Virus record (IMG/VR): IMGVR_UViG_3300023174_000080
Location: 1-64,000 of that record
DNA from: a virus
Length of the DNA stretch: 64,000 nt
Strand: one strand, 5' to 3'
Shown here: one piece after another, positions 1 through 55,400 of the stretch
Layout: each line of letters opens with the position of its first letter
Numbering within the stretch: the first letter of the stretch is position 1
Notes under the pieces: generated by a model
Seen by the model: only the letters and a program-made list of their open reading frames with translations
What the model was told of the DNA's origin: nothing
The model's database searches: none
Translations under genes and position numbers: made by a program

Positions 1-65
1 AGATTGACAATCTCCAGATTGACGAGTTGTTGCGTTCCCTTCGCAGCTAGGATATAATAACCACC

Positions 66-263
66 ATGACCATCAACGTTAAGAATCGTGACACTGGCAA
101 GCTTGTTTACTGTGGCGATACCATTGTGGGAATCTATAACGAGCCGTGGATTTTTCTTGCTATGTCAAGCCCGATGACAGTGTGGGTGCGAGATCCGATC
201 ACGGGTGCCGTTGTTGACTTTGACCCGACGACTATGGTAATCGACGTGGACGTGGTAGCCTAA
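66..263 (+). CDS. Small hypothetical early protein (leaderless)
   Basis: ORF with TTGCGT(30-35)-17-TATAAT(53-58); ATG 7 nt after -10; no SD. Confidence 0.7.
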   Translation: MTINVKNRDTGKLVYCGDTIVGIYNEPWIFLAMSSPMTVWVRDPITGAVVDFDPTTMVIDVDVVA

Positions 264-273
264 CCTGTAGCCT

Positions 274-343
274 TGGCACGGAGCTTGCACAGCCGCCGCG
301 CCTTGCGCGGCTGGCATTATATCATAATAAAAAAATAAAGCAA
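274..343. repeat. Convergent-promoter palindrome element, copy 1
   Basis: sigma54 TGGCAC-N5-TTGCA (274-289); CAGCCGC/GCGGCTG palindrome (290-313); minus-strand TTGCTT-16-(TG)TATAAT (343-316). Confidence 0.8.
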
Positions 344-388
344 GAGAAAAAAACTAATAATGTCCACCCATCCACGGGCAAACCGCGC

Positions 389-417
389 ATGTTAGTTGAA
401 CTGGCAACGGGAGTCAA
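389..417 (-). promoter_or_regulatory. Additional minus-strand sigma70 promoter
   Basis: Reverse complement reads TTGACT-17-TAACAT. Confidence 0.45.
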
Positions 418-478
418 GAGCGAAAAAAAATGCATCCACCCTCTTGCACGTACACGAAAGCGCGTCTATAATAAGGGC

Positions 479-664
479 ATGACCAACGAAACCTGCAACG
501 GACGGCACACGAAGAATGATGGTTCCTACTGGGTCAATGATGCGCGTGGCATTCCCCTTGCCCGCGTCTGCGCCAAGTGCGCGGAGAAAAAGCTTTCCAA
601 GTATCGGAAGGATGTTCGCACGAACGCGAGCTATTGGGCAGACGAGATTGTTGACGGCGACTAA
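479..664 (+). CDS. Small Cys/His phage protein (DARGIPL..VCxxC), leaderless
   Basis: Start reassigned from 389 to ATG 479, 6 nt after TATAAT(467-472); TTGCAC -35 at 17 nt. Confidence 0.75.
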   Translation: MTNETCNGRHTKNDGSYWVNDARGIPLARVCAKCAEKKLSKYRKDVRTNASYWADEIVDGD

Positions 665-717
665 GGTTCCCCTGTATAATATCCCGGCAGTTAACCCGTA
701 GCACCTGAGAGAAAAAA

Positions 718-1005
718 ATGATCATCTTCCGTCGCCTCATTCGTTCCAAGGGTTCCACGTCTGCGAAGCTTGTCGGTGGACACCGTTTCGCTGTCAGTGT
801 TAAGGAGCTGATCCGTCACGCAAAGCAGACGCGGCACGTCTACGCTTTCATTGACGAGAACGGCAACGAAGGAACGATCCGCAGCGGTGTTCTCATGCGG
901 ACGGTTGATTCCCACGTTCGCAACATCGTGACCGTTGGTGACGCGATCCAGCGTCCCCTGCCTTTCGGTGTGGAGTCAAGCGATATTTTTGGTATCGCTG
1001 CCTAG
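718..1005 (+). CDS. Hypothetical early protein (leadered)
   Basis: ORF; TTGACG-18-TATAAT promoter; leader contains GCAGTTAACCCGTAG. Confidence 0.7.
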   Translation: MIIFRRLIRSKGSTSAKLVGGHRFAVSVKELIRHAKQTRHVYAFIDENGNEGTIRSGVLMRTVDSHVRNIVTVGDAIQRPLPFGVESSDIFGIAA

Positions 1006-1120
1006 TTGACAGCACCTTGGCTCCCGTGCTAGAATATGGCGGGAGCCTTGGCATAGAGGTTGCAGCCGCCCTTCGGGCGTCGGCTGGCACTATTATATCA
1101 TGCCTACGGAATAAAAGCAA
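1006..1120. repeat. Convergent-promoter palindrome element, copy 2
   Basis: TTGACA-18-TAGAAT (1006-1035); sigma54 TGGCAT-N5-TTGCA (1049-1064); CAGCCG..CTTCGG..CGGCTG palindrome (1063-1086); minus TTGCTT-17-TATAAT (1120-1092). Confidence 0.8.
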
Positions 1121-1190
1121 CTAAAAAAAGAAAATAAAAAAGTGGTTCCACCCCCTTGCAAGCCCATGAAAGCGCGGGTATAATATGCAC

Positions 1191-1373
1191 ATGACCCAGA
1201 CCGAGTTTGATTTCGAGGCAGATGATTTTGGCGTGAAGCTGAAGGATCCCTGCGAGTGGTGCGCGAAGCATGAGGCAGCGCACACTGTGGTCAAGCGTGG
1301 GCAGGACACTGGGCTTTGCAATAACTGTGCCGAGGATGATTACATGGATTGGGTTGAACAAATGAACGATTGA
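1191..1373 (+). CDS. CxxC-CxxC zinc-ribbon microprotein, acidic, leaderless
   Basis: CEWC...CNNC; TTGCAA-17-TATAAT; ATG 6 nt downstream. Confidence 0.75.
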   Translation: MTQTEFDFEADDFGVKLKDPCEWCAKHEAAHTVVKRGQDTGLCNNCAEDDYMDWVEQMND

Positions 1374-1405
1374 CGGCACTAAGAAAAAAAGATATAATGA
1401 CCGCC

Positions 1406-1570
1406 ATGACCAAGCCAAAGCGCATCAAGATCCAGCTACACAAGAAGGTGTGCGTCAAGTGTCTGACGCAATGGCAGACCAGCAATAAGGATAGCAAGGT
1501 GTGCCCTTCCTGTGTCAACGACCCTTCAACAATCCTGACGCGGTGCCTTGCAAACATTGTGAAGCTGTGA
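1406..1570 (+). CDS. CxxC-CxxC zinc-ribbon microprotein, basic, leaderless
   Basis: CVKC...CPSC; TTGACG-17-TATAAT; ATG 7 nt downstream. Confidence 0.7.
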   Translation: MTKPKRIKIQLHKKVCVKCLTQWQTSNKDSKVCPSCVNDPSTILTRCLANIVKL

Positions 1571-1583
1571 GAGAATAACGCCC

Positions 1584-1754
1584 ATGAACAACTACGGATA
1601 CGGCTTCAGCATCGGTGACAAGGTTACTACTAACAGCGGGATGTTCAACGGCGTTGCTACCGTGTGGGAATACAGGAAGGAAGGTTATGTTGTTGTCAAG
1701 TATTTTGCTTCCCTGTATCGCGTCCACCATAAGACGCTCCAGCTTGTCAAGTAG
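1584..1754 (+). CDS. Small SH3/KOW-like protein (not in ORF track, 56 aa)
   Basis: Translated by hand: MNNYGYGFSIGDKVTTNSGMFNGVATVWEYRKEGYVVVKYFASLYRVHHKTLQLVK; TTGCAA-17-GAGAAT, leaderless. Confidence 0.7.
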   Translation: MNNYGYGFSIGDKVTTNSGMFNGVATVWEYRKEGYVVVKYFASLYRVHHKTLQLVK

Positions 1755-1760
1755 TATCGT

Positions 1761-1829
1761 TGGCACGGCAGTTGCAAGCCGCCGCAAACGCGGCGGCTGC
1801 TATTATATCATAGCTGAGAATAAAAGCAA
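1761..1829. repeat. Convergent-promoter palindrome element, copy 3
   Basis: sigma54 TGGCAC-N5-TTGCA (1761-1776); AGCCGCCGC-AAAC-GCGGCGGCT (1777-1798); minus TTGCTT-16-TATAAT (1829-1802). Confidence 0.8.
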
Positions 1830-1899
1830 GAATAAAAAGAAAAAAGAAAAAGCGTTCCCCCCCCTTGCGTGCGTCCACGACATCCTGTAGAATAGGCAC

Positions 1900-2031
1900 A
1901 TGACCAAGTTGATCAAGGCAAAGCGGGTTGGCGGTCTTTACTTCCTGTCCATCGGTCGCATCCAGATTTCCTTTTGTGTCAAGCGGAAAGAAAAGAAAAA
2001 GAAGATGTTGACCATCCCTGCCAACCTGTGA
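1900..2031 (+). CDS. Basic microprotein, 43 aa (not in ORF track)
   Basis: MTKLIKAKRVGGLYFLSIGRIQISFCVKRKEKKKKMLTIPANL; TTGCGT-17-TAGAAT; ATG 6 nt downstream. Confidence 0.65.
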   Translation: MTKLIKAKRVGGLYFLSIGRIQISFCVKRKEKKKKMLTIPANL

Positions 2032-2043
2032 GAGAATAAGCAC

Positions 2044-2193
2044 ATGGAAAACAAAAACCTGACCCTGACGGTTGACGAGATCCGCATGATCCGCCTTGCG
2101 CTCGCCTCTCATGTTTTCGGTGCGTCGAAGCAAACGGAAAACAACATTATGAATCTCATGTCGAAGCTTCACAAGGTACTTGACCCGCAGTAG
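2044..2193 (+). CDS. Microprotein, 49 aa (not in ORF track)
   Basis: MENKNLTLTVDEIRMIRLALASHVFG...; TTGACC-18-GAGAAT; ATG 6 nt downstream. Confidence 0.65.
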   Translation: MENKNLTLTVDEIRMIRLALASHVFGASKQTENNIMNLMSKLHKVLDPQ

Positions 2194-2249
2194 AAACCCG
2201 CTGTATAATGTCCCTCGCAGTTAACCCGTAGAACGAAAGAGAAAAAACA

Positions 2250-2486
2250 ATGTCCACTGTCAATGATATCGCGGCGAAGCTCAACAGCTACAAGCGTTCC
2301 AACGGTCAGCGTATGTTCTACGTCACTGACACGGCGATTGTCCTTGACAATCCGGTGGTGAGCGGTAACGAGGTTGCCGCAGAGGTTGAGGGAACCATCC
2401 TGCGTTTCACGCTCGGTGTCAACTGTTTTCAGATGATCCGCACGCGAAAGGTTGAGACTACCGAAACGTGGACGCTGGACGAGTGA
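2250..2486 (+). CDS. Hypothetical early protein (leadered)
   Basis: ORF; TTGACC-18-TATAAT; leader contains GCAGTTAACCCGTAG. Confidence 0.7.
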   Translation: MSTVNDIAAKLNSYKRSNGQRMFYVTDTAIVLDNPVVSGNEVAAEVEGTILRFTLGVNCFQMIRTRKVETTETWTLDE

Positions 2487-2497
2487 GAAAATAAAGC

Positions 2498-2579
2498 TTG
2501 ACAGCTCGCCGAGTCGGTGGCATAATAGCCGCCGATTTCGGCGGCTGCATATTATATCACAAGGAAAAGAATAAAGCAA
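2498..2579. repeat. Convergent-promoter palindrome element, copy 4
   Basis: TTGACA-17-CATAAT (2498-2526); AGCCGCCGA-TT-TCGGCGGCT (2527-2546); minus TTGCTT-17-TATAAT (2579-2551). Confidence 0.8.
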
Positions 2580-2660
2580 TAAAGAAAAGCACGGGAAGAT
2601 AAGAAAAAAAAGACGTGCAGGCTCTTGATTCCCGTAGAGATTCCAGCGTATAATATGGGC

Positions 2661-2792
2661 ATGAACGAGAACAACAGCTGGTGCAAGGATTGCGGCACGG
2701 AGAAGAACCTTGTCATTTTCTCCGAGGCACCAAAGGTTGTCCTTTGCACGGAGTGCGCCATGTGGCGCGACAGCAAGATTGACAAGCGGTAA
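2661..2792 (+). CDS. CxxC-CxxC zinc-ribbon microprotein, 43 aa (not in ORF track)
   Basis: MNENNSWCKDCGTEKNLVIFSEAPKVVLCTECAMWRDSKIDKR; TTGATT-18-TATAAT, leaderless. Confidence 0.7.
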   Translation: MNENNSWCKDCGTEKNLVIFSEAPKVVLCTECAMWRDSKIDKR

Positions 2793-2814
2793 AAAGGAAA
2801 GGTATAATATCACC

Positions 2815-3006
2815 ATGACCAAGAACTGCGACGACTGTGGTGTGAAGCTGCACGGGCAGTGCATCGTTGACGGTGGCAAGCTGATGTGCTTGGACTGCGC
2901 GGAAGCGTTCAACGATGAACAGGAGTTCGGCATGGTGGACGACCGGGAGGAAACGGACGGGGATATCCACGATGATCTGGTGGATATGTATTACAACGAA
3001 TATTAG
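2815..3006 (+). CDS. CxxC-CxxC zinc-ribbon microprotein with acidic tail
   Basis: CDDC...CLDC, D/E-rich C-terminus; start reassigned to ATG 6 nt after TTGACA-18-TATAAT. Confidence 0.75.
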   Translation: MTKNCDDCGVKLHGQCIVDGGKLMCLDCAEAFNDEQEFGMVDDREETDGDIHDDLVDMYYNEY

Positions 3007-3113
3007 TTGACTCCTGCTGGCGGGTGAGCTATAATAGCCGCCCGCTGCGCGGGCTGGCACACTTATTGCCAGACATTCAGTACTATTATATCAAACAGCC
3101 GCCGTGTTGTCAA
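3007..3113. repeat. Convergent-promoter palindrome element, copy 5
   Basis: TTGACT-17-TATAAT (3007-3035); AGCCGCCCGC..GCGGGCT; sigma54 TGGCAC-N5-TTGC (3055-3069); minus perfect TTGACA-17-TATAAT (3113-3085). Confidence 0.8.
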
Positions 3114-3183
3114 GCTAAAAGCGCAGGAAAAGAAAAAAAGATATGCGCTTGCATATGTCCCCCGTTCGTGAGAGTATGTGCGT

Positions 3184-3549
3184 ATGACCAACAACAACAT
3201 GACCATCGAGATCCACGCGGGCGACGAGCTTCAGGAGATCAGTGTGCCCACCAAGTGGGAGATCTGCGAGCGTTGCGAGGGCAACGGCAAGCACGACCCT
3301 GAGTCGTTCTCCAACGGCTTCACCGCGAGCGAGTTCAATGACCTCTTCGACGACGAGGAGGAGCGCGAAAACTATTTCAATGGCAAGCACGATGTTGCGT
3401 GCCGCGAGTGCAACGCCTCGGGCAAGGTGCGCGTGCCTGACCTTAGCTCTCTCACGGACGAGGAGCGCGAAGGCTACGAGCGTGCGCTGGAGGACCGTGC
3501 TGACTACGAGCGCGAGTGCCGCTACGAGCGCCGGTACCTCGGGTACTAG
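3184..3549 (+). CDS. DnaJ-type zinc-finger phage protein
   Basis: CERCEGNG...CRECNASG; TTGCAT-17-GAGTAT; ATG 6 nt downstream. Confidence 0.75.
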   Translation: MTNNNMTIEIHAGDELQEISVPTKWEICERCEGNGKHDPESFSNGFTASEFNDLFDDEEERENYFNGKHDVACRECNASGKVRVPDLSSLTDEEREGYERALEDRADYERECRYERRYLGY

Positions 3550-3609
3550 TTGCCCCTGTCAAGGGGGTGGTGGTTGGCTAAATAAAAAAAATAAAAGCCT
3601 CCCACCCCC

Positions 3610-3707
3610 TTGACGAATATCCACAGGTATGGTAAACTAGCCGCCTTGCAAAGCAAGGCGGGAGGCTGGGACACCTATATTATATCATGGGTGAATAGGT
3701 CGCGCAA
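3610..3707. repeat. Convergent-promoter palindrome element, copy 6
   Basis: TTGACG-17-TAAACT (3610-3638); AG-CCGCCTTGC-AAA-GCAAGGCGG; minus TTGCGC-17-TATAAT (3707-3679). Confidence 0.78.
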
Positions 3708-3783
3708 GAAATAAAAAAAGATATTCCACCTCTTGTCCACCACCATCCTGTCAAGGTAAGCTAGAGACATAGGAGAAAAGATT

Positions 3784-4194
3784 ATGGCTAGCAAAGACTA
3801 CGAGAAGAACGATAAGCTGTATGCAAAGATTGAGCAGAGGATTGAACAGGTTGCGCTCATCATGCATAGATTAAATAACATGTGGAGCTTCACAGGTACT
3901 CAGCTGTCCTATGCCTGTGACAACTACATGCGTCCCCGTGACCTTGCTACACTAGAGGAGCGTGTGCATTGCTTGGTGCAGGCTTATGCTGCACTAACAA
4001 AGAGCGTGACCTTGTATACATCTCAGGGTTATGTGCTGCCACAGTTCTGGGATGAAACGTTTGGCAAGCTAGGACAAGATATAATCTTTACCTTGCCCGA
4101 GATGCTGCATGTCAAAAAAGAAAAAGCCTTCTATAAAAATTTGCAAAAGACCTTCACCCTTGCGTGGGGGGAGTCCCCCTCCCTCCCCCTCTAA
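3784..4194 (+). CDS. Hypothetical protein
   Basis: 136-aa ORF with AGGAG SD. Confidence 0.65.
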   Translation: MASKDYEKNDKLYAKIEQRIEQVALIMHRLNNMWSFTGTQLSYACDNYMRPRDLATLEERVHCLVQAYAALTKSVTLYTSQGYVLPQFWDETFGKLGQDIIFTLPEMLHVKKEKAFYKNLQKTFTLAWGESPSLPL

Positions 4195-4282
4195 GGGGCG
4201 TATTTCCGGAAAATAAGTCTCTATGATATTGACATTGACCCTAAAAGTGCTCTATGGTCGTTTTTAAATTCCGGGCCAAAAA

Positions 4283-4543
4283 ATGAAAAAATTCAAGTTC
4301 AAAGTTGGTGATCTTGTTGCCTGTTACAACGATCCCGACAATTTTAAAATAATACTCGGTTGGGTTGTAAGCCGTTGGAAAAATAGACATGGTGAAAATA
4401 ATTACCATATTCATTGGAGCGACATAGCCGATAATCCCGATTATATCCAATCACCTATAGATGAATATGGTGTGAATGAATGTTATAATTTGCTACAAAA
4501 AGCTATCGAAACAGATACATGGTCGGGCAAAAAAATTCTGTAA
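4283..4543 (+). CDS. Small SH3/KOW-like protein (GDLV family)
   Basis: KFKVGDLV...LGWVV...YHIHW pattern. Confidence 0.7.
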   Translation: MKKFKFKVGDLVACYNDPDNFKIILGWVVSRWKNRHGENNYHIHWSDIADNPDYIQSPIDEYGVNECYNLLQKAIETDTWSGKKIL

Positions 4544-36822: not shown

Positions 36823-39800
36823 ATGTATAATTTAAATATAAGAAAATATCCTGCATTTCCTACGGTTGCCACCCATACAGTTGTTGGGAGCAAATTTTTT
36901 ATTGAATCACAAGAAAATTTACCTGCAATTCCATTAGTGATTGATAGAAATACAAAAACTCTAGATAATGTAGAAGTAACATTACTTGATTATGGTTTAG
37001 GATATAATGGTTTATGGAGTAGAGTCTATGTTCATAATCAAGATGGTTCTAAAACACTTGGATATGTAATGACTTCTGGTTTAGTAGAAAAACCAGAAGC
37101 AAAATTAAATCCTTTATTTGAGTATAATCCAGATAATAGTTTAGCCTCAAAATTAGTAGAAGGAATAGATTGGAAAAAAGCAACTCCGCAAACTTCTATT
37201 GATGATGAAAAGAACGGTTGTAAAATAGTCGTGTGGGAATTTCCAGAAGTCACTGATTTTCAAAATGTTGATTTAAGCGAAAAATTAGCTGAAGCATACG
37301 AAAAAGGCGTAAAATTTCTTCTCAGTGAACAAGGATATAGCTTAAGGCAAAAAGATAAAGTAAATAAACTACTTTATGGCTATTATGCTTTTGCAAGAGC
37401 GGAAGAATTTAGCATAGATCCTCGTCCGTGCTCTTGTTTAAAAGTTCTTGTAGCTATTTCTAAAAGATTTTTATTATCTAGCGCTATAGATTTAAATAAA
37501 AAAGAAAAAAATGAAGAATATGAAGATTTAGAAAAAACTATAGTAGAAGAAGAAACTGATGATCAAAACACTATCGAACCTATAAAATTTGTAGAAAAGA
37601 AATTTAATAATTTTAAAGAATTTAAAAAATTTTTTTGTATATTAGGCGGCACAATAGCTACCTATAATTCCGTTTTAGAACAAAAGGAATGGGATTTAGG
37701 AGAAGCGACTTTAAATTTTCAAGACGAATTCTCAGATATAAAAAAATATTTTAAGATCATAGGACAATTTTTAAGATTAAACAGCCCAAAGTCATTTGTT
37801 ACAGAAGATAAAATAGGAGAATTTATTGCTACAGTATTTGCTGTAGATTTAGAATCTACCATAGAAAAATTTAGTTTACAAATTACACCTACTGATTATG
37901 CTGAATGGCGTGGAGATTTAACATTAGTCATTAATCCAAATAATTATTCTATAGCTAATATAATACATAATTTAGACGGAAAGCAAGTATCTTTAAATAA
38001 AGAATTATTAACATTTTTAAAAAATGAAACGATTCAAAACGGCACAATCGTTAATTATTTACTCACATTCAATCCAGATAAAGACGGACCAAACGATAAT
38101 GGTAAACAAATATTATTAAATAATTGGAATAATAATAATTTCAATTTATTTGATATAAACGATAGTACATCAATAAAAGGTGCTTTTTCTATTTATGGAG
38201 GAATTGCACCATTTTTAATGGATACATTTGATGGTCAAACACAGGTCTTTTTAAAAGATAAACACTATCCATCTATTGAAGCTACGCCTTTAGGATTAGA
38301 TATAGAAAATTGTATAACAACTGAAATCCAAAATTTACAAGATATAGCCAGAGATAAGCTTCCAGCAACAGCTGAATTATATGCTAAAAGGAAGCAAAAA
38401 GCAATAGACGAACAGCCAAAGATAGAAGCAAATGTTTTCTCTACTTCATTACTAGATTTAAGTAATGTAGTTGACCCAAACTTTAGAATTTTATTTGGCA
38501 TAGATGAACCACCCGGAGATAATAAAAAGCAAAAGTTTTTTAATTATGTAGCGGTTGCCCAATCTTTGGATTGGGCAAAATATTTAGCATTTGCTTCTCA
38601 GTGTTTATCAAAAAAAATAAATCCAAATGATTATCAAGAAATAATAAAGAAATACGGTTCTGCAAAAAAATTCATTGAAAATTTGTTATTAGCTACTTTG
38701 TGTAATCCATTTTTAACAAATGGCTTAAAAATAATTAACGGTTTTCAAATACCTACAATACAAACAAATAATTCCTTGCAGGCATTAGCTGAAGCAATTC
38801 AGCAAGGTATTATAGATTTATTAAAAGAAGTAATACAGGAAGGTATTAAAGCGGCTCTAAAAGCAGCCGCCGACGCTTGCGTAGATGATCCAAATGCAGA
38901 TTATGGAGGAGCCGCACCAGCTGACGGGGAAGATCCTTTTGAAGATCCTCTATCAGCGGCTATAGATGATCCAGACCTAAATGACTTATTAGGAGATCTT
39001 TTTGGAGATCTAAAAGATGATAAAGGTTTATTAGATGATGACGCTAAACAGGAAGCAAAAGATAAATTAAAAAATTTGCTTGATGATATTTCTTCTTGTT
39101 TGTCGGCAAATGAATTTTGTAGATTATTAAAAGGATATTCTGTTAATGATGAAGTAATACAATTTATAATGGCTTTGGCAAAAAGAAAATTTGGCCCACC
39201 ATTAAGTAATCGTTTTAATAATAAAGATTATATTTATCGTTTTTTTAAAACTTTAGGTTCTAAAATAGATTTAACTATTTGTGAAGATATATTAAATAAT
39301 GAAGTACCAAAAACAGCTAATTTATTATGTGATGATGGAAAATTACAAAATCTTAGAAGAAAGATATTAGAAGATACAAATTTACCAAAAGATGCAATAG
39401 ATGATTTATTAAATGCTCTTAAAGAAAAAGAAAAACAAAATTTAGAAAAAGTGTTAGGATTATTGAATTCAGATAATCCATTTGATTTTAGTAAAGCGCC
39501 TGACTTGCTATGCAGTATTCTACCAAATGGTCAAACTATAGCTCCTCCAAAAGAAAGCTATAACAAAATAATAGATGCTTTATTTGATCCTGTATATACA
39601 AAGTTTAATGAAGAAGCAGAAGAATGGTATAAAACCACTTATTCATTAAGTTCTTCTGCTCCACAAATGATGCGGTTTGATGAAGCTACTGGACAATTTG
39701 CTATAAATCAACAACAATCTACTGGAGCTTTAACTGATTTAATAAAAGCTAGCTTTGAATCAGATCCTGAGAAAAGAAAGAAAGCAAACAGTTTTGATGC

Positions 39801-42800
39801 CGCAACGGCAATTGGCGGCGGTGGAGGAAACTCTGGAATTAAATATCCTTCTTATATGTTTAAGGATGTATTCCAAAACAATAATTATTATTTAAATTAT
39901 TCTAGCAATGATAAATTATCAGTATTTAATTTTACCGCTTCTCTTAATGGTTATAAACAGCAAAAACTTGATGCTGCTCTAATAGGAGAAAATCTTAGAA
40001 ATAAGGTTTTACAAGCCGAAAAACCGCTTAAAGAAGCAGTTTCCAAATTACTTCTTTATTTTAATGCTAAATTTGTTGTAGAAGTGGCAAAAATGATACC
40101 AAGTGTTACTGAGGACGTGGCCGGTGCATCCTCAGTTGCCCTTGGATTTATGGAAGGCTTTAAAGCGCTAGGTGGGATAGCAGATTTTGTACGTATTTTA
40201 GATATGTATGTTAGAGGAAATGTAGTTAATCTGAATGAGCCAGTTTTAGCTAATGATTTAGATGCTTATTATAAACTTTTAGGTTTTGATAGCGCTCAAG
40301 AAGCTGCCGCTATATATTCTTCAGAAAGTGGTGTACCAATATATTATTTAATAGCAAAAACTTTTTTTGATGATGTAGGCCAATTAAAACCGGATCTAAG
40401 CCAACTTATAAATTATGTTACAACTATTAATACTGGTGAAAATAATTCTATAAATTCTAATATAGAACTTGCAGAAGGCTTAGTGGCTGATTTTCTAAAA
40501 GCTGGAAATTTATACAGAGAAGTAAAAAATTATTATTCTGTTGTTCTTAACACTCTAGTTGCATATCCAAATTATGATATTACATTAAATTCTGGTTTAA
40601 GCAGCTTAGAGATTCCGTTAAATAAAAAAATAATTTTACAAAATGAAGAGATAAAATTAGGCGATCAAACAAACGATACTTATACATTACAAACTTATTT
40701 TAATAATAATTTATATGATATTTACAATTTAGAAATAAAAAAGAATGGCAACAATCACTTAAAAATAAGTGAAACCATACCAGTATCTAAAAATATTTTA
40801 TCTTTTATAACAAAAGAATTAAAAATTGAATCTTTAGAAAATATTAAAAAACATGATATTTATAGTTCTTTTATAAATAAAAAAATAAAACAATATGGAA
40901 AAGATGAAGATTGTTTATTAATAGAAACTTCAAGAGAAGAAGCGATAACTTATGACACTAGTATATTTGATCAAAGAAGAATAAAAATTACAAGAAAAGA
41001 TTATATACAAAATTATAATAATGCTTCACAATATATTTTTAATAATATAAAATCTAACATTTTATCTACTAATGCAAAAACAAATAAATTTTTGTTTCTT
41101 AAATCACTAGCTACTGGAACTATACCAGATTCAGTTATTGCTTTAGAGAGTGGTTCTGATGGAATACCATATACTAAATTTTTAAAATTAGTAATTCCTG
41201 CTACACAGAATCAAATTCTTTGCAATGCTAGACCGCATTATTTAGATATTGATAATATAAAACAAGACACTAAGAAGGAACAACAAAAAAATAATTGCGC
41301 TGACAAAATTATAGATGATAAAATAGCTAAAGGATTACCTATAGATCCAAAAGAAATTGAAGAAATAGAAACAGATGAATCACAAAAAATAATGTCTAAA
41401 GGTATATATCAATTAGCCATAAGATTATTTTTACATGATTTGGTATTAAGAAGCATACCTGTATTTGGATATTATGATCCACAAACATTAAGAGATGAAA
41501 AGTTATTTTGTGACTTTTTATCTGATATGGTTGAAATAGAAATGAGAGGAATGGATAATACATTCTTTAGAATGTTATCTAATTATGTTTTCAAAGTATA
41601 TTTAAAACAAAATCCTTTAAAACAAGATGAAGTAATAACAGAATCTAAAAAAATTGATTTAAGAAGAAAAGCTTTGAGGGCGGCTGTAAAAGAAGAATTA
41701 AAATCTGCTGTATTGCCAAAGTTAGCTAAAAGAATTGATATTGATACAAATATTGATTTAATTAATTCTTATCCAAAAGATAAAACAATAAAATTAATTG
41801 ATATTTATGACGATATTCAAAACTTTAATCAATATATAAAATTCTATAATAATTCAATATATATAAAAATAATTGATAATAAATTAAAGAAATCAACAGA
41901 AACTTATTATATAAAAATTTTTCAAAGCAAAAGCTCGGATCCAAATAAAATATGGATGGATTTTGTATCTACTACGGAACATGATTTGTTATTTAAATAT
42001 TTATTCCCCGTTACTCAATATTTAACAACCATTTCTATTACATCTATTTTAGCTACTTCTACAAGAAAGCAAATAATTGATGCTTTTAGAGATACAAAGA
42101 AAAAGCTTATAAGAATAGCTAAATCGGTTCAAGCTAATGGAAGACAAATTAGTTTTGATCCAATGAATCCTCAAGATATGGAAAATAGTAATCCTTTAAA
42201 TGAGGTATGGAAATTTATTCTTACAGCTTTATTAAAGACGCCTTATAATATTGCTAAAGCGTTTGCAGAAGGAACAGAACCTAATTTAGCTATTATAACT
42301 ACAGTATTTAAACTAGCAAGAGCGTTTGAACCAAGATTACCGTCCCTATTGATACCAGCAGCTTCTATCCCATCGGCTTTATTGCCGCCACCAATAGGCT
42401 TCTTACCAGCAGTTAACCCAATACTGTTCTGGATATATCACGCTACTCTAATGTGGTTCGATGATCCATATAAGGATATTCTAGAATCTAGTAAACAGCA
42501 GTTCTTTGATCAATTAAGTAATGGTAATATGTCTAACGTAAATTGTGACGATGTAATCAATCAAGATCGTTTCTATTTAGATAAAAATAATAAACCAGTA
42601 ACTATAGAACCAATAAGTGGAAAATATGACTTATATTATGGCAAAGGTTATGAAGCTGGTTCTTTAAAAACTATAGAAGATATTTTAAAGGATACAGAAA
42701 AACAACAAAAAGCTAGAGCAGATGCTGAAGCAAAAAAGGCTAATGAAAAATTAGAAGAAGAAAAGAGCGCAATAATTGATAGAAGGGACGCAAAAAACAA

Positions 42801-42816
42801 TCCAAAGAATAATTAA
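36823..42816 (+). CDS. Very large virion structural protein (1997 aa)
   Basis: Uninterrupted ORF immediately before gp25-like gene; SH3b-like N-terminal W.RV...GYV motif. Confidence 0.7.
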   Translation: MYNLNIRKYPAFPTVATHTVVGSKFFIESQENLPAIPLVIDRNTKTLDNVEVTLLDYGLGYNGLWSRVYVHNQDGSKTLGYVMTSGLVEKPEAKLNPLFEYNPDNSLASKLVEGIDWKKATPQTSIDDEKNGCKIVVWEFPEVTDFQNVDLSEKLAEAYEKGVKFLLSEQGYSLRQKDKVNKLLYGYYAFARAEEFSIDPRPCSCLKVLVAISKRFLLSSAIDLNKKEKNEEYEDLEKTIVEEETDDQNTIEPIKFVEKKFNNFKEFKKFFCILGGTIATYNSVLEQKEWDLGEATLNFQDEFSDIKKYFKIIGQFLRLNSPKSFVTEDKIGEFIATVFAVDLESTIEKFSLQITPTDYAEWRGDLTLVINPNNYSIANIIHNLDGKQVSLNKELLTFLKNETIQNGTIVNYLLTFNPDKDGPNDNGKQILLNNWNNNNFNLFDINDSTSIKGAFSIYGGIAPFLMDTFDGQTQVFLKDKHYPSIEATPLGLDIENCITTEIQNLQDIARDKLPATAELYAKRKQKAIDEQPKIEANVFSTSLLDLSNVVDPNFRILFGIDEPPGDNKKQKFFNYVAVAQSLDWAKYLAFASQCLSKKINPNDYQEIIKKYGSAKKFIENLLLATLCNPFLTNGLKIINGFQIPTIQTNNSLQALAEAIQQGIIDLLKEVIQEGIKAALKAAADACVDDPNADYGGAAPADGEDPFEDPLSAAIDDPDLNDLLGDLFGDLKDDKGLLDDDAKQEAKDKLKNLLDDISSCLSANEFCRLLKGYSVNDEVIQFIMALAKRKFGPPLSNRFNNKDYIYRFFKTLGSKIDLTICEDILNNEVPKTANLLCDDGKLQNLRRKILEDTNLPKDAIDDLLNALKEKEKQNLEKVLGLLNSDNPFDFSKAPDLLCSILPNGQTIAPPKESYNKIIDALFDPVYTKFNEEAEEWYKTTYSLSSSAPQMMRFDEATGQFAINQQQSTGALTDLIKASFESDPEKRKKANSFDAATAIGGGGGNSGIKYPSYMFKDVFQNNNYYLNYSSNDKLSVFNFTASLNGYKQQKLDAALIGENLRNKVLQAEKPLKEAVSKLLLYFNAKFVVEVAKMIPSVTEDVAGASSVALGFMEGFKALGGIADFVRILDMYVRGNVVNLNEPVLANDLDAYYKLLGFDSAQEAAAIYSSESGVPIYYLIAKTFFDDVGQLKPDLSQLINYVTTINTGENNSINSNIELAEGLVADFLKAGNLYREVKNYYSVVLNTLVAYPNYDITLNSGLSSLEIPLNKKIILQNEEIKLGDQTNDTYTLQTYFNNNLYDIYNLEIKKNGNNHLKISETIPVSKNILSFITKELKIESLENIKKHDIYSSFINKKIKQYGKDEDCLLIETSREEAITYDTSIFDQRRIKITRKDYIQNYNNASQYIFNNIKSNILSTNAKTNKFLFLKSLATGTIPDSVIALESGSDGIPYTKFLKLVIPATQNQILCNARPHYLDIDNIKQDTKKEQQKNNCADKIIDDKIAKGLPIDPKEIEEIETDESQKIMSKGIYQLAIRLFLHDLVLRSIPVFGYYDPQTLRDEKLFCDFLSDMVEIEMRGMDNTFFRMLSNYVFKVYLKQNPLKQDEVITESKKIDLRRKALRAAVKEELKSAVLPKLAKRIDIDTNIDLINSYPKDKTIKLIDIYDDIQNFNQYIKFYNNSIYIKIIDNKLKKSTETYYIKIFQSKSSDPNKIWMDFVSTTEHDLLFKYLFPVTQYLTTISITSILATSTRKQIIDAFRDTKKKLIRIAKSVQANGRQISFDPMNPQDMENSNPLNEVWKFILTALLKTPYNIAKAFAEGTEPNLAIITTVFKLARAFEPRLPSLLIPAASIPSALLPPPIGFLPAVNPILFWIYHATLMWFDDPYKDILESSKQQFFDQLSNGNMSNVNCDDVINQDRFYLDKNNKPVTIEPISGKYDLYYGKGYEAGSLKTIEDILKDTEKQQKARADAEAKKANEKLEEEKSAIIDRRDAKNNPKNN

Positions 42817-46470: not shown

Positions 46471-49400
46471 ATGTCACTTAAAGACCTCTTTAGTAATAAT
46501 TCAGGACAAGTAGTAATAAATAAATCTTTAGAAGATTTAAATAGAGAAGCGCAAACAGAAAATTATTTAGATTCTTTAATAGAAAATAACGAGAGGTATC
46601 TTCCAAACGTTGACTTTTCTGATCCTGTTAATTTTGCTAGATATGGCTCTGCTGAAAAATATTACGTAGACGGCATAAAAAATATTTATCAACATTATCC
46701 ATATGATGGTTCCAAAAAAGAAAAATTAGATTGGCGTAATCGTGCATCGCAAATAGATTTATATATATTAGATAATATCTATCCAAAATCAGTTGGTTAT
46801 GTAAATTTAAGTAGTTCTGTTTCTTTATCAACCGTTTCCGGTTTGCGTTCTTCTTCTCTACCTCAATATGTTTCTATTAAAGGCGGTCCAAATGTTTCAT
46901 CTACCGGACAATTTTCCTTATCAAACATATACGACCCAGCAAATAATCGTGAAAGTAATTTATCGATTAATGGATTTGGAAATACAGTAGAATTCTGGTT
47001 TAAAGATGAAGTATCATCTTCTAATACAAATTATAATTCTTCTTATGCATTATTTGATTTATGGAACAGCATTACTGCCTCATCAGCTGATTACTCTCGC
47101 TTAACAATAGCAAAAATAAGTGGTTCAAATAAGTTTGCCGTAACATATCGTTCCGGTTCAAGCGGTATAACAAATGAAACAATAGATTATACATTTGATT
47201 CATCTGCTTGGCATCATTATGCTTTCTCTTTCTCACCTTTTAATACAAGTGATTTATTAGTTAGCTTATATATTGATGGCGTTCTTGTAAAGTCAGAACA
47301 ATATTCTTCGTCTGCTATTTCATCAGCCAACAATAATAATGCTATAGCATATATCGGAGCCTTAAGGGCGAGTATTGTTTCTGCTGATTCTTCACATCAA
47401 GGATTGGGAGCTTCATACGGCTCTTATGATGAATTCCGCTTTTGGAAGAAATGCAGAAATCCACAAGAAATATATCGTAACTGGTTTTTATCAGTAGATG
47501 GCGGTTCTAATACTGATGATTCAAACATAGATCTAGGAGTATATTTGAAGTTCAACGAAGGCATAGTCAATACAGCCTCTGTAAGTGAAATAGATAAAAT
47601 CTGTATTGATTATTCTGGTCGTATATCGAATGGCGCATTAGTAAATTATTCAGTCGGTACAAAGATAACAAGTTCCGCAGTAGATGAATATTTTGGTGAA
47701 ACAAAAGAAGAAAAAGATATAATTATTTTCTCTTCTAATCCTCTCGTCCAACAAGCTATACAAACCTACGGTAATATAGGTTTTGCATATGATCAAACAA
47801 ACATCTCTAGTATTTATAAGAGTCTACCATCTTGGATTACAGAAGAAAATGAAAAGCAAGAGTTAGAAGATCTGCCAAGTTTAATACAAATAATTTCTAG
47901 TTATTTTGACACTTTACATATTCAAATTGAAAATGTAAATAAAATTAAAAATCTAGAGTATACTCAAGATTCAGAAAAGCCAAAACCATTCGCTAAACAG
48001 CTATTAACATCCCACGGTTTTGATAATTTAGAATTATTTACTGATACAACCTTCTTGGAAAAAGTACTTTCAAGAAATGAAAATGCACAATTTGAAAAAA
48101 ATCTCTCTGATATAAAAAATACAATTTATCAAAATATATATAATAACTTAGCTTATATTTATAAAAGTAAGGGAACTGAAAAATCACTTAGAAACTTAAT
48201 CCGTTGTTTTGGTGTTGATGATGAATTAATAAAAATTAATTTATATTCAGATAATACAAAATACGATATATCAGATAAGTTTATTTATTCCTCTGTACCA
48301 AAAAAGTTTGTAGATTTTAATAATCCAGATAGATATGATGGTTATGTATATCAAAAGAGAAAGTCCACAGATTTAACAAATACTAAATCTTATATCCCAT
48401 CTACTGATTCTGGATCAATAGTTTATATTCCTATAACAGTACAGGCTGAAGTTATATTTCCAAAACAATTACCAATAGAAAGTACCGGATACTTTACAGT
48501 AGATTTTATAACTTCTTCTTTGTTTGGTGCTCATACAGCTAATCAAAATGATTCTATTTATACTTGGGGTAATGATGAGTTTAATTTTCAAGTATATTCA
48601 ATTAGAGAAAAAGTAGGAAGTCCAAATACTTATTTCTTAGCTACTGGCTCTTTCTCTGGTAGCGGATTTGCCTTATCATCTAGCATTTATAAAGATGTAT
48701 ATGATAATCAAAAATGGAATTTTGCTTTAAAAATTAAACCAAATAAATATGATCAAGTAAATATCGCTAACGGAAGTCAAATTACGGATTATTCAGTTGA
48801 ATTCGTTGGTTATAATTCGTTGGCTGATTCTGTTGATAATGTATTTAATATTTCTACTAATATTTCTCAAAGTAATATGGTTAGTGCGTTGACAAAACAT
48901 AAGAGACTTTATGTTGGTTCACATTACCAAGACTTTGATAATACACAATTATTATGCAAAACAGATGTTAAGATTTCCTCATTAAGATTTTGGTATGATT
49001 ATTTAACTGATGAAGAAATTAAATTGCATTCTTTTGAATCAACTAATTTTGGAAGAAATAACCCAAATTGGAATCCAGATTATTTCCTTTCGATATCATC
49101 AGATAGGGTATTTACTAAATCAGATACTCTTGCCCTTAATTGGGATTTTAGTAATGTATCTTCTTCTGATTCTAACGGACAGTTTATAGTAGAAGATTTA
49201 ACTTCTGGTTCTTTACAGGAAGCATCCTCAAACGAATTTGGCTGGTTTAGCGGTTTAGTTGGTTATCAATATCCCGGCTTTGCTGATGAATTCTTAGAAA
49301 ATGATGATCAGGTAGTAAACAAAGAATATGTCTTATCAGCCAAGAAACAAAATCCAGAAATTATAAATGGTAATGATTTAATACAAACCCCAGATACCGA

Positions 49401-52400
49401 TGACGTTACTAGAATAAAAGATTCTAAAGCTATTACTTATTATTTATCAATTGAAAAGAGCATGGCTCAAGTAGTAAATGATGAAATAATGAACTGGTTT
49501 GCAACAATTAAAGGATATAATAATTTAATTGGAGAACCTGTTGAAAGATATAAAGCAGAATATTCTGGCCTTAGACAAATGCGAGAAATATTCTTTAAAA
49601 ATATTGGTAGTACATTAAATTTTGAGAAGTTCTTTGAATTTTATAAATGGATTGATTCTTCATTATCTAATATAATTGAACAACTAATTCCTCTATCGAC
49701 GAACGCTTCTACAAAAGTTAGAAACATGGTTGAAAGTCATATGTTGGAAAGAAGCAAATATGAAAATAAAACTCCAACAATTGAATTTAAGGGTGAGCCA
49801 AGATCATATCCAATTGTTTCGCATCTTCAATATAATTATAAAGAACAAGCTGCCTATCCAAATAATCTAAATTCAGAAGTGCTTATTAGTCGTTATTATA
49901 CGGATAAGCCATTATGGCTAAAGCAACGTATTCAAAGAACTGATGTTATCGTAAGTTCTTCGTTAGAGCCACAAAATGATATAGATAGAGAGATAATTCG
50001 TCAGGTTATTAATCAAAATAATATTGATAAATTACCAACCTTATTCTCTTCGGATACTGCCTATGAAGGCAGAAACGATGTAAGCCGCGTATTTACTAAA
50101 ACATATAGAATAATAGGTGATACATTATATAACTTAGAAGATACATTAACATTCGGAAACATATCTAACAATAGAATAAATTCACAATTTTTATTCGCCT
50201 CCGCAAGCGTTACTGCATCAGGCCAAGTAGTTCAGCCATTGGTTAAAAAAGGTAATTATTTAAACACATATGAGTTTGTTCAAATGTCCAGCAGAACAAA
50301 CAATAATAAATCTTTTATTGATTTAACTGGTTCTATATTTGCCGTTTCTGGTACAAATATACTAGGATTTACAGATAGAACATTACCTGTAAGAGCGGCA
50401 TACAAAAATATATTTGTTGAAAGATTTAGTGCCCCCGGTGGTCCAGAAGTATTATCACGCGGGACTTTAGATAAAAACGCAGAAGAATATTCAGCATATA
50501 ATTCATTAAATTATAGAAATTTCAGAGTTAGAAAAAATCTAAATAAATGGTTAGCAGAAACATCTAGTATTGATTCTGAAAATCCATCTTTACATAAGAA
50601 CGCTGATAACATTGCTAGATATCCCGGTGATGATAACAACTCTTATACTAATACACAAAACGATAATGCATTTATAAGTCACGCCATCCCCAGAAGCGAT
50701 TATCAATATTCATGGATTACATCTTCCATGCAATCAAATAATTTATTTAGCGGTTATTCTTCTAAATATACTAACTTAGATATACAATATACATTTGTTT
50801 CTGGAAATGTTTCTGGCTCTTCTATAGTTGATTTTGTTGGTTTGAATACAACTATTCCAAAAACAATTAATACATCATCCAATACTTTATCTTCTGTTAA
50901 CGCTGTTATAGATGTGAACAAATATTTGTCAAATATTAACGGTCCATATCAACATCCAACTTGGAAGCAAATTCGCGGTGGTGAATCTTTACTTTCAAGA
51001 GTATCTAGAAAAAATAACAAAATACTAGTACAAGATACGCCGATTTTAAAAACAAAAATTGTTAACAATGTAGTAGTTCCATATATTGAAAGAACAAGTC
51101 AAACATTTACATCATATAAAGAAATGCCAGTTTCCTATAACAAACCTATGACGCATGTTATAGATATTTCCGGCTCTGATAGTTTAATAGAAACAATCAG
51201 CACTTATGATAATAACAAGGAAAGATTCTCTAATGAACTCTTAGGTAATACTTTAGGAATTGATGCTAAAGAAACTCCTGAATATCATGATATATTGAGT
51301 AATCTTGAAAAAGGATTATTTGAACCAAAGCCGGAAATAGTAGAAATAAAATATGAAAATATGGCTTATCCAAATAATACATATGTTGGTTCAGCTGACG
51401 TTCGTTTACGCGATAATTATGAAGATTTTATCGATAATACCGGTAGTATTGTTAATGCTCGTACATTCTGGAGAGATAGTATTGATGAACGCGCAAGAGC
51501 TAGCGTAACAGAAGATATTTATGAAAATTTAAACACTTCTTATGAACAAATAAATAATGATTATTTATTTTATCCTTATAATAATGAAAACAGCAATGAA
51601 ACGATATTAATTAATCAAAATAATTGTTTTAGAGAAAGTATCTTGTCTTTAGATAGTTATATGACCAGCTCATATAGTAGTCAAAATATTGGTATTTATA
51701 TTCCGTCGAATCCAATAGCAGATGGGACATATAATAATATTGCTTTTACCAATGATGGCTATTCGTGGACAAATATGAATTTATCTATGAGTAATGATGT
51801 TAAAGCCATAGTAAGTAATGTATATAATAATGATATATACATTGGTGGATCCTTTACTTCTGTAAATGGAAATTCAGTAAGAGCAATAATAAAATGGAAC
51901 AACGGATTAACCTCTTCAGTTGGAACTATAATAAGTGGAGAAATAAATACATTAGTATCTGGCAATAATGGAATTTATGCAGGTGGAACATTTGTTACAA
52001 GCACTGGGCAAAGTAGAATAGCTAGATGGGATGGAACTGCTTGGAATAATGTTGGAAGCGGTTTAAGTAATACGGTTTTAACATTATTCAGTGCCAGTAG
52101 CGGTTTATATGCTGGAGGTATATGGACTACTAATACCGGTTCTCGTATAGCTAAGTTTGACGGAATAGCTTGGAGTGCAATTGGTGGAGGTATATCTGAT
52201 CAAGTTTATAGTATATTTTCTAATAGTTCTGGTTTATATGCTGGTACCAGAACGACGGCTAGAAATGGCTATTTAACTAAATATAATACTTCTACTTTAA
52301 CTTGGAATTCACTTGGAAGCGTTGGTACAGTTTATTCTATTACTCAAGGACCAACAACAACTAATTTATATTTAGGGATTGACTCTACTTCTTATTATGG

Positions 52401-55400
52401 GTTTGTTAGCTACAATGGAGCAGTTTTCAGTGGAGTTCCCTTCTCTGGAACGGGTTTATCACCCGATAGCGAAGGAGCTATTATTTGCTATAGTATGTAT
52501 TCTTCAAGCGATGGGATAATTCTTGGTGGAAGATTTGCCGGTGCCGGTAGCTATGGAGGATCGCCATATTATGAATCTTCAAGAATAATAAAATGGAATT
52601 ATAACATTGGCGGTACTAGTGGCTGGCAAAGATTTGGAAGTGGAATTAGCAAACCAGTATCTGGTGGATTTAGAGGATATGTAAATACTATTTTTTCTAA
52701 TAGCAGTGGTTTATATATTGGAGGAAATTTTACGTCTAGAGGTCCATACGTCTATCCAAAACATATATTAAATTATAATAATGTAATTCATGGTGATATT
52801 AAAAATTCTAATATTTTAGAAAATATTTATAATATTAAAAATAACATTTCTTATAAAACATCTAAAATTGCCATTTATGACGTAAAACAAGAAAATATTT
52901 ATAATATTTCTAAAAGCGTTTATTATAATAGTGAATTAGATTTTGGCGGCACCGTGCCGGGATTTGAAATCCAACAATTCCCAATATTATTTTCAATTAT
53001 AACTGCTAGTGACGGTATATACGTTGGAGGAACTTTTAACAGCATTGGAGCTTCTTCAATAGCAAATATAGCAAAATGGAATGGCAATACATTTGAAAAT
53101 TTTGCTAATTTATATTACCAATCATTAATATATGGTTATGGAATTAATAAAATAATTTCTGGAAGTGACGGGATATATTTTTGCGGTCAAGTAAAAACTT
53201 CTTTAGGTGGACAAGATCTATACGTACTTAAATGGGCTAATAGTTTACTAACAACATTAAGTTCATCAGTGATAGCAGGTACCGATAAGCAAGTTTATGA
53301 TATTTTATCAGGAAATACTTTATTTACTACAACGGCCAACAGTGTTAATTATTATAATGTAGGAGCTTTTTCTGCTCTGCCAGCAATGGCTTCTATTACA
53401 TATAGTAATTATTCTAACAATAGCATAGCCAGTGCCAGTAATGGATTAATTGTTGCTGGTAATTTTACAATTACTTCTTCAGCATATTCCATATTAAGAA
53501 CAGATATAAATAATTGGTATTCTTTCCCAAAAAATCCTTTAAATGTTACTAGTGTTTGTTCTGGCGCTGACGGTATTTATATAGCCTCTAGAACAGGAGT
53601 TATAGTAGATTCAGATCTTAATAATTATAATTATATTGCCAAAATTACTGATAGTGGAGTAGTGGCTTTAGGCAAAGGCTTAAATGGTTCTGTGCGTAGT
53701 ATGACCTCTAACTCTAGTGGTTTATATGTTGGCGGTACTTTTACTTCTGGGGCTAATTCTGATAATACAAGTATTTTATTAAATAATATCGCTAAATGGG
53801 ATGGCGTAAATTGGACGCAAGTTGGAGAAAAAAATAATAATAATGGATTTAATATAAACGTTAATGATACAGTGGCAGGTTTAAGCAGCGATGAAAAAAA
53901 TGTTTATATAGCTGGAAATTTCCTAACAACAAGATCTAGTCCAAAAATAAAAGATAAAAATTATTCTAATTATTTTTATGGCTACTACAATCAAAATAAT
54001 TTAATTATTCCAACACCACAATTAATATTTAATAACAATATTAATAATTTATCTTGTTCTTCTAATAAAATTGATTTACTAGAATTAACATATGATTCTT
54101 TAAATAATTCTAAAATTATTACAAAATATTCTGGTAGTCATAATGTAAAAATAATAAATAATGGATATGAATATGAAATAAACGAAAAATCTAATAAAAC
54201 TCCATTTTTTAATTCTTATCTTGAGTATCTTGGAGACTTAAAAACTAAAACACAAAAGTATTCTGTAATTCCAGAATACACAATTAGTGATTTTGTAAAA
54301 ACATACATTAAAGAAAAGAATGGTAATTATAATGCTATTATAAATAATGATTATTTAAAACTTGACGGCGCAGCACAAGAGCAAGGATATGAAGATATAA
54401 ATAATTCTATTAATATAAGTAATTTAATAAAACCAGAATTAATATTTAATAATTCTAAAAATAATGAAAATATAAATTTAAATTTTAAAATATCAAGTAT
54501 TAAAAAATTAATCCCATATAGAGATTTTTATCCAAGTGAAAGAATAATTAAATTAAGTAATTATTTTATTAATTCTTTTCTTGATATAGATACTAGACTA
54601 ACTTCTGTTTTAAATTCAGAAGAAGTTTATAGTTCTTCTCTTTCAAATGGTACGCCAATAAATCAACAAATATTAACATTATTGCAACCAATGATGGCTC
54701 CGGGTATTTTATTGAATACTATTAAGTCTTCTATTGCTGTAGATTGGCCTATATTTATTGCAAATAGCGGTTCTTATAATTTAACAGGCGGAATTCAATT
54801 CTACTCTCATACTGGAAGTAATTTAATTACTAATACTGTTTATGATTCTGTTAGCGATAGATCTTATGCTTATACAGCTTCAAACTATATTGATAAAGAA
54901 CAAAATTATCGTCTACCTTTTGAAGCTATTATAGAATTTGATACACGAATTCCACAAGAGTTACGTAGCGACGATAAAAATATGTATTATTTAAATCCTT
55001 CTTATTATACATCAGATGTATTAACAGGAAGCGATTATAGTTTATTATCTTATCCAAGTTATAATATGGGTTCCGGCTCATTAAAGGCATTCATATTTCG
55101 TGATGCTAACTATAAATTAGCAATGCATAATTTCCTTGCGGAAATACCAAATTTCTTCCTTAATGGTAAATTAACAAATATAATTTCACTACCAGAAAAT
55201 GAATTTACTACAGCTAAACGAGGTGTGACATATTATATGGATGTTGTGTTAGAGCGCGATTCTAAATATAAAGAATTTATTGCCGATCCATATTATGAAG
55301 GTTTAAAAGCGCAAGCAAACAGCTTTTACGATGGTACTTTCTTATTACCATCACCTGATTCTCTATATGGTCCACCCACAAGGTATTGGAATAATGTAAA

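Follow-up and report, generated by a model that had tools for sequence, protein, structure and literature searches.

A repeated promoter-hairpin cassette with a conserved reverse promoter in the GC-rich small-gene region of an uncultured freshwater T4-superfamily phage

We analysed the first 64 kb (64,000 nucleotides, hereafter the window) of the virus record IMGVR_UViG_3300023174_000080 from IMG/VR, which is one sequence of 118,946 bp, is classed as linear and, at a completeness of about 65%, is a fragment. A cassette of promoters and hairpins is repeated six times among small genes near its start. The phage is an uncultured freshwater myovirus of the T4 superfamily: its terminase is 44% identical to those of Microcystis phage Mel-JY01 and Flavobacterium phage immuto (T4-superfamily), the record also carries portal, tail sheath and baseplate wedge genes, and the public runs that contain the stretch (22, none of them an RNA run) are freshwater, lake or estuary metagenomes. 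GC content is 50% from base 1 to about 4200 and about 30% across the rest of the record, with a sharp boundary, and all six cassettes lie inside the 50%-GC island. The order of GC-rich block and AT-rich DNA is the same in related contigs, so the block is not an assembly chimera. No DNA match to positions 1-4300 was found in the cultured-phage collection. One relative has the GC-rich block in the interior of its contig, and in contig L098 the 11 kb upstream of the block have no tblastx match to the window genome. The window and contig L008, which was assembled independently and is about 89% identical, begin at the same base and share an identical first 120 nt; this shared start may mark a physical end or the edge of a repeat, or may reflect a break in the assembly.

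Motifs were read in positions 1-4500 and each was scored against shuffled sequence. A sequence-only reading of the window had described six periodic head-to-head promoter cassettes around an AGCCGCC palindrome, and the six sites hold up: the motif lies on the plus strand at 291, 1064, 1777, 2527, 3036 (and 3097) and 3639, with successive sites 773, 713, 750, 509 and 603 bp apart. The window contains 15 copies against 1.02 expected (maximum 4 in 100 shuffles), nine of them within 291-3645. The anatomy proposed for the sites is likewise present at all six, in a constant order: a forward element, an AGCC...GGCT hairpin (hairpin B), a promoter on the minus strand, an A-tract and the promoter of the next gene. 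Promoter-like sites in 1-4400 number 18, against 3.9 ± 2.0 in shuffles, and a stretch of about 180 bp can hold as many as four promoters together with two hairpins. The cassette anatomy is clearly non-random.

The forward element beside AGCC is sigma54-like at three sites and sigma70-type at the other three, as had been claimed. Cassettes 1 to 3 carry TGGCAY-N5-TTGC on the plus strand, with the GG and GC doublets and the exact -24/-12 consensus and spacing, 0-2 nt before hairpin B in all three (TGGCAC at 274-288, 2 nt before AGCC; TGGCAT at 1049-1063, abutting AGCC; TGGCAC at 1761-1775); there are five such boxes in the window against 0.18 expected. An extra match, TGGCAC-N5-TTGC at 3055-3069, falls in a 29-nt insert that follows hairpin B of cassette 5 and that the other cassettes lack. 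Cassettes 4 to 6 have instead a plus-strand sigma70 promoter of the form TTGACN-N17-CATAAT/TATAAT/TAAACT, which ends one base before AGCC each time (TTGACA-N17-TGgCATAAT at 2498-2526, TTGACT-N17-TATAAT at 3007-3035 and TTGACG-N17-TGgTAAACT at 3610-3638). Cassette 2 has another forward promoter, P1 (TTGACA-N18-TGcTAGAAT, plus strand, 1006-1035), which directly follows the stop codon of the upstream gene and whose -10 is enclosed by the loop of another hairpin, hairpin A (1019-1047, stem of 8-9 bp).

Hairpin B occupies 291-312, 1064-1085, 1777-1798 (a perfect 9-bp stem), 2527-2546, 3036-3055 and 3639-3667 in cassettes 1 to 6. Across the cassettes collected from relatives (see below) it takes 24 distinct sequences, every one of which folds, with 6-9 GC pairs and loops of 3-4 nt, and AGCC is retained even when it is unpaired. 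Hairpin A covaries in the same way, with six distinct and fully complementary stems around an invariant TGcTAGAAT loop in 19 aligned cassettes. Where the forward element is an abutting sigma70 promoter, hairpin B adjoins its -10 (13/13 cassettes), and the promoter spacer can pair with the 5' arm of hairpin B, as in cassettes 4 and 5, so that an alternative hairpin can form whose loop contains the -10. This alternative is often more stable than hairpin B itself (e.g. -27.4 versus -13.5 kcal/mol), and for 8 of the 13 no more than 3 shuffles out of 200 fold equally well (cassette 4, z = -6.1).

Opposing each forward element is a minus-strand promoter with an extended -10, present at all six sites with the 16/17-nt spacing that the earlier reading had given. 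The -10 element TGATATAAT has 10 matches against 3.6 expected, a number reached in 1 of 100 shuffles, and its six minus-strand matches all fall at cassettes (positions 316, 1092, 1802, 2551, 3085 and 3679); the plus-strand string TATTATATCA occurs in the whole 118,946-bp contig only at 1091, 1801, 2550, 3084 and 3678. The accompanying -35, read on the minus strand, is TTGCTT, TTGACA or TTGCGC (AAGCAA, TGTCAA and GCGCAA on the plus strand): TTGCTT in cassettes 1 to 4 (316-343, 1092-1120, 1802-1829 and 2551-2579, with spacers of 16, 17, 16 and 17), TTGACA with spacer 17 in cassette 5 (3085-3113, 12/12 consensus) and TTGCGC with spacer 17 in cassette 6 (3679-3707). When hairpins were gathered without use of the -10 motif and oriented by the A-tract, 40 of 40 had TGnTAnnnT within 14 nt and TTG at 16/17 nt, and in 38 of these 40 the -35 was TTGCTT, whereas gene promoters use TTGCA or TTGAC. 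Rarer forms of the reverse -10 (TGgTAGAAT, TGgTAAAAT, TGcTAAAAT, TGgTACAAT and TGgTATAAT) match sigma70 degeneracy, so the reverse elements behave like real extended -10 sigma70 promoters. In a few cassettes of relatives the sigma54 box and hairpin are present and the reverse promoter is absent. The reverse promoter is the most conserved part of the cassette.

These wider counts come from a search for the same cassette in related phage sequences, the check that the sequence-only reading had called for, which, with the window and 24 loci taken together, yielded 51 distinct cassettes. A first pattern scan of IMG/VR returned at least 110 stretches, which were judged by inspection: among the matches listed, cassettes lie at 6 loci on 5 contigs, a second pattern finds the same 5 contigs, and the remaining first-scan matches are chance or an unrelated recurrent 32-nt match. 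A metagenome scan gave 35 loci, 29 of them with at least one hairpin and reverse promoter and 6 of them chance matches (L118, L131, L132, L143, L150 and L151), and the same kind of scan of prokaryote genomes gave 4 matches, all chance and outside any cassette context, and hence no host lead. Both fetch patterns include TTATATCA, and the second IMG/VR scan, the metagenome scan and the prokaryote scan also required the sigma54 box; each fetched locus adds cassettes that played no part in its fetching. By forward side, the 51 cassettes divide into P1 with sigma54 box (22), sigma54 box alone (9), abutting sigma70 -10 (13), P1 alone (4) and other (3); the corresponding numbers among the 22 cassettes fetched without the sigma54 demand (window and first-scan loci) are 7, 4, 8, 2 and 1. 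Some cassettes have a TTGAC motif in the position of the sigma54 box.

The GC-rich block codes for 13 small proteins, none of the 10 scanned having a family match above cut-off, and at least six of the 13 look CxxC zinc-ribbon-like by eye. In 10 of the 13 genes only 6-7 nt separate the end of the -10 hexamer from the ATG (starts at 66, 479, 1191, 1406, 1584, 1900, 2044, 2661, 2815 and 3184, mostly ATGACC), so that these genes look leaderless, without space for a ribosome-binding site; the other three have leaders. The promoters that follow the cassettes, all on the plus strand and preceded by A-tracts, illustrate both arrangements. Five end 6 nt before the start codon: TTGCAC-N17-TATAAT at 444-472 (ATG 479, leaderless), TTGCAA-N17-TATAAT at 1156-1184 (ATG 1191), TTGCGT-N17-TAGAAT at 1865-1893 (ATG 1900), TTGATT-N18-TATAAT at 2625-2654 (ATG 2661) and TTGCAT-N17-GAGTAT at 3149-3177 (ATG 3184). 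The sixth, TTGTCC-N18-TAAGCT at 3733-3762, is followed by a 21-nt leader with GGAG before ATG 3784. A 31-nt leader sequence stands ahead of both long-leader genes (687-717 and 2217-2247, 87% identical). Between cassette 1 and the promoter that follows it, some 70 nt (345-420) are conserved in L008, L029 and L040, and a C-rich box (CCACCCCC-like) lies directly upstream of the -35 of several plus-strand promoters (436-443, 1148-1155, 1857-1864 and 3602-3609).

Comparison with relatives points to gain, loss and exchange of modules at the cassette and promoter repeats. The alignment of the window with L008 (89% identity) breaks at 1208/1393, 1578/1910 and 2010/2202, and the gaps (1209-1392, 1579-1909 and 2011-2201) end in promoter/ATG repeats: one gene body is swapped between two promoters, a second gene is absent together with cassette 3, the gap running from one leaderless promoter-ATG junction to another, and a third is absent as far as the following -10. 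The joint from 1578 to 1910 also occurs in a contig of run X1, one of four public runs compared, all as DNA contigs, and other public-contig joints connect the cassette 1 A-tract to the promoter at about 2201 or fuse the two copies of the 31-nt leader. Because the metagenome contigs were matched at 85% likeness, this evidence for module shuffling is moderate.

To our knowledge, promoter-early stem-loops (PeSLs), described in a few cultured enterobacterial and vibrio phages, are the only "mobile regulatory cassettes" thought to shuffle genes of T4-type phages. PeSLs occur as small cassettes in hyperplastic regions of RB49/phi1, T4/PST and KVP40/nt-1 and combine strong sigma70-like promoters and AT-rich upstream sequence with stem-loops, which can lie between the -35 and -10, over either box, within the AT-rich stretch or immediately ahead of the start site. 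They terminate transcription in a reporter assay, flank ORFans (open reading frames lacking known homologs) and mediate indels as well as the formation of mini-circles (Arbiol et al. 2010, PMC2839356; Comeau et al. 2014, PMC4122927). The earlier remark that the architecture was not recognised from any named element therefore has to be revised, as the cassette shares six of the seven testable defining features of PeSLs. Among these, copies with about 100 bp conserved (six in the window, 51 distinct overall) lie in a variable, hyperplastic T4-type region among small genes without known homologs; near-consensus sigma70 promoters are dense, with AT-rich tracts (A-tracts) ahead of the gene promoters; a stable GC stem-loop lies over or between the -35 and -10 or before the start site (hairpins A and B and the spacer pairing); and indels and replacements between relatives, in metagenome contigs matched at the likeness given above, end in cassette, promoter or leader repeats. 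On balance we regard the cassette as a PeSL-type element with extra parts. What is new relative to the published descriptions, so far as their available text goes, is the conserved reverse extended -10 promoter of the lake-phage cassettes examined, the sigma54-like box of many of them, the leaderless state of most genes, where a PeSL ends in a Shine-Dalgarno sequence, and the setting in a 50%-GC island of a genome of about 30% GC. A lake-phage cassette may also hold up to three forward and reverse promoters besides a separate gene promoter. Measured promoter and terminator activity and excised mini-circles also belong to the features that define PeSLs; the promoters and terminators of the lake phage are predicted. 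Among the matches that literature searches listed, none describes a phage in which a convergent promoter-hairpin cassette is repeated.

We favour, with a probability of roughly 0.55, the reading that each of the six sites is a copy of one composite cassette, which serves punctuation and recombination in a hyperplastic early-gene region. Host RNA polymerase would transcribe modules of one to three tiny ORFan genes, mostly leaderless, and at the end of a module the transcript would meet hairpins A and/or B, leading to a stop or attenuation and a capped 3' end. The forward promoter appears to be built into the hairpin, with its -10 in the loop or abutting the stem, so that its own transcripts, judged by start sites predicted from geometry only, would begin inside the stem and escape the hairpin, and transcription would thus be reset at each cassette. 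The conserved extended -10 promoter would fire back through the hairpin into the finished module, sharpening its boundary and limiting early expression through head-on collision and antisense pairing; antisense or collision control, one of the options raised in the sequence-only reading, is in this form a viable part of the proposal. The A-tract behind the reverse promoter could serve as an UP-like element for the promoter of the next gene, and the repeated cassette and promoter sequences would act as crossover points for the gain, loss and swap of modules between related phages. An uncultured lake-phage clade would then carry the logic of PeSLs in a far more elaborate form, and the cassette, if its reverse promoter works, would be a compact and portable means to insulate and time very short operons. 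Since the signals are near-consensus for Escherichia coli, cassettes are directly testable in reporter constructs, and the combination of leaderless genes, sigma54-like boxes and a GC island makes the phage a good model for the first minutes of phage expression.

Several observations weigh against the punctuation and recombination reading. Promoters, start sites and terminators are all predictions; canonical terminator-like sites (hairpin plus U-tract) are not enriched (5 against 5.2 ± 2.5), and the tails behind hairpin B are just moderately U-rich. G-U pairs are nearly absent from hairpin B, the two strands fold with equal energy, and the G-U count reveals no strand asymmetry; the hairpin may act in plus-strand RNA, in minus-strand RNA or in DNA. 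A strong antisense promoter should also harm expression of the upstream genes, a cost that the reading would have to explain, and the reading assigns no role to the sigma54-like box. Cassette frequencies are biased, because the fetch patterns contained TTATATCA and, in one of them, the sigma54 box. With respect to PeSLs, the cassette has no 3' Shine-Dalgarno end, 10 of 13 genes being leaderless, and the words "antisense", "bidirectional" and "convergent" are absent from the text of PMC2839356, as are "antisense", "bidirectional" and "opposite" from that of PMC4122927, to the extent that each was available; the most conserved part of the cassette thus falls outside the PeSL model as described there.

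The reverse promoter could alternatively be the point of the cassette and not an accessory. In such an antisense timer, which we consider rather unlikely, later, middle-mode-like reverse promoters would shut the early modules in cis through collision and double-stranded RNA. An extended -10 frees a promoter from -35 recognition when sigma region 4 is remodelled, and the reverse promoter always has one; its predominant TTGCTT also differs from the -35 of the gene promoters. The core TGCTT is that of the Mot box, and the promoter-middle stem-loops (PmSLs) of vibriophage nt-1 carry a TGCTT Mot box in place of the standard -35 (PMC4122927). The lake phage, which is not known to have a MotA/AsiA system, has the motif in promoters that point backwards. 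In the phiKMV-like phages a conserved antisense promoter (P001 of LUZ19) has been mapped to the early region and is proposed to keep transcription out of early genes, which offers a precedent (PMC10914365). Against the timer, the TTGCTT of the lake phage stands at the ordinary sigma70 -35 distance of 16/17 nt. T4 Mot boxes sit 1-2 bp closer to the -10. The timer also leaves the forward promoters and the sigma54-like box unexplained, and the search for AsiA in the 119-kb fragment, which found no match, was also blank in control genomes and is hence uninformative. An unlikely elaboration gives each early module its own delayed antisense promoter, so that shut-off would be wired in cis across the region instead of depending on one global factor; the TGCTT -35 and extended -10 could stay or become active after sigma70 remodelling, and the sigma54 box would gate the switch by host state. 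That box is the centre of a quite unlikely sigma54 switch, in which host sigma54 holoenzyme, poised on the box beside the hairpin as a closed complex, would compete with sigma70 polymerase at the overlapping reverse promoter, or else drive activator-dependent transcription of the next module, and early expression would follow host physiology. Its exact match and excess in the window fit this idea. So do the 31 of 51 cassettes that have it at 0-2 nt from AGCC (11 of 22 where the pattern did not demand it) and its presence beside the hairpin even in cassettes that lack the reverse promoter; phage YuA, dependent on sigma70 as well as sigma54 and with a sigma54-like promoter that has been mapped, is a precedent (PMC10914365). 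LUZ19 and YuA differ from the lake phage in having a single such site per genome outside repeated hairpin cassettes, and the LUZ19 site is recognised by a phage polymerase. Counting against a sigma54 switch are the 13 of 51 cassettes with a sigma70 promoter instead, some cassettes having a TTGAC motif in its place. A sigma54-dependent promoter needs a host with sigma54 and an activator ATPase, usually with upstream binding sites; no sigma54 DNA-binding or activator AAA+ domain was found in the 119-kb fragment, and no upstream activator site is evident, although none was sought. Roadblock-assisted termination was considered and set aside, its geometry suiting the sigma54-type and not the sigma70-type cassettes.

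Two further proposals concern the hairpins themselves. P1 and the reverse promoter might each yield a 55-70-nt RNA ending at the shared hairpin, the paired complementary RNAs acting as decoys or regulators in the cassettes that combine P1 and sigma54 box (22/51). The minus-strand RNA of cassette 4 does fold into a long hairpin followed by UCAAGCUUUAUUUUCU (shuffle z = -4.6), the tail-giving AATAAAGC-TTGACA arrangement recurs in at least 4 distinct cassettes, and two of the six plus-strand hairpins in the window score terminator-like. Such short non-coding RNAs are nonetheless improbable: sigma54-type cassettes have no minus-strand U-tract behind their hairpins, single-stranded conservation is limited to promoter motifs, and Rfam returned no family at gathering score, the sole hit below E = 1 being CrcZ at 16.9 bits (gathering 95). 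Very improbable, in our view, are DNA-level devices, namely the cruciform hairpin promoters, RNA polymerase sponge and transcription-assisted genome entry offered as options in the sequence-only reading, together with N4-type promoters for a virion polymerase. The palindromes are flanked by AT-rich DNA, the equal hairpin energy of the two strands is compatible with DNA structure, the window and L008 begin at the same base, and the phage encodes a 3503-amino-acid protein without assigned function. Stems of 6-9 bp are short for cruciform extrusion, however, and in N4 promoters, which serve a virion RNA polymerase, the hairpin upstream of the start has a defined loop, whereas the loops of hairpin B vary freely. 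An N4-like hairpin promoter, raised over the 3503-amino-acid frame, was dropped, as sequence searches of Pfam, PHROG and PDB gave that protein no match and no link to a polymerase. Cruciform promoters gain no support, and promoter-overlapping hairpins are treated as RNA stem-loops in the PeSL descriptions. The sponge fares no better, since a few dozen promoters per genome presumably cannot titrate the polymerase of a cell. Transcription-assisted genome entry also found no support: the record is about 65% complete and need not begin at a genome end, the block is internal in one relative, and reverse promoters would not draw DNA inward.

Convergent promoters have a known counterpart in coliphage 186, whose face-to-face pR and pL interfere with each other's transcription in a single repressor-controlled switch between lysis and lysogeny. 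As there, two promoters of the cassette converge at short range with overlapping footprints, and occupancy of one would be expected to exclude or interfere with the other; unlike pR and pL, the pair is repeated at module boundaries around a hairpin, and no repressor site is evident.

Long open frames on the minus strand are plentiful in every frame of the GC-rich block, in the window as in relatives. One of 273 codons at 2172-2990 crosses cassette 4 and has a 264-codon counterpart in L008; given how common such antisense frames are across the block, it is probably not a gene, and we judge the minus-strand frames as a whole to be non-coding. An early protein of 121 amino acids has nine homologs, and the distant homolog loci (L160-L163, phage contigs of 46-69% GC) have neither cassettes nor sigma54 boxes.

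Farther along the window, the structural region contains two giant open reading frames (36823-42816 and 46471-56982; 1997 and 3503 amino acids), both without Pfam or PHROG match. A late-promoter class was also considered for the reverse promoters and rejected, since the motif enriched upstream of the AT-rich genes is ACTATTTA and not TGATATAAT, which places the reverse promoters outside the class of those genes. Upstream of the AT-rich genes (4300-118946) the top 7-mers are ACTATTT and CTATTTA, found at 12-14 genes against about 2 expected, and they mark a candidate later promoter class.

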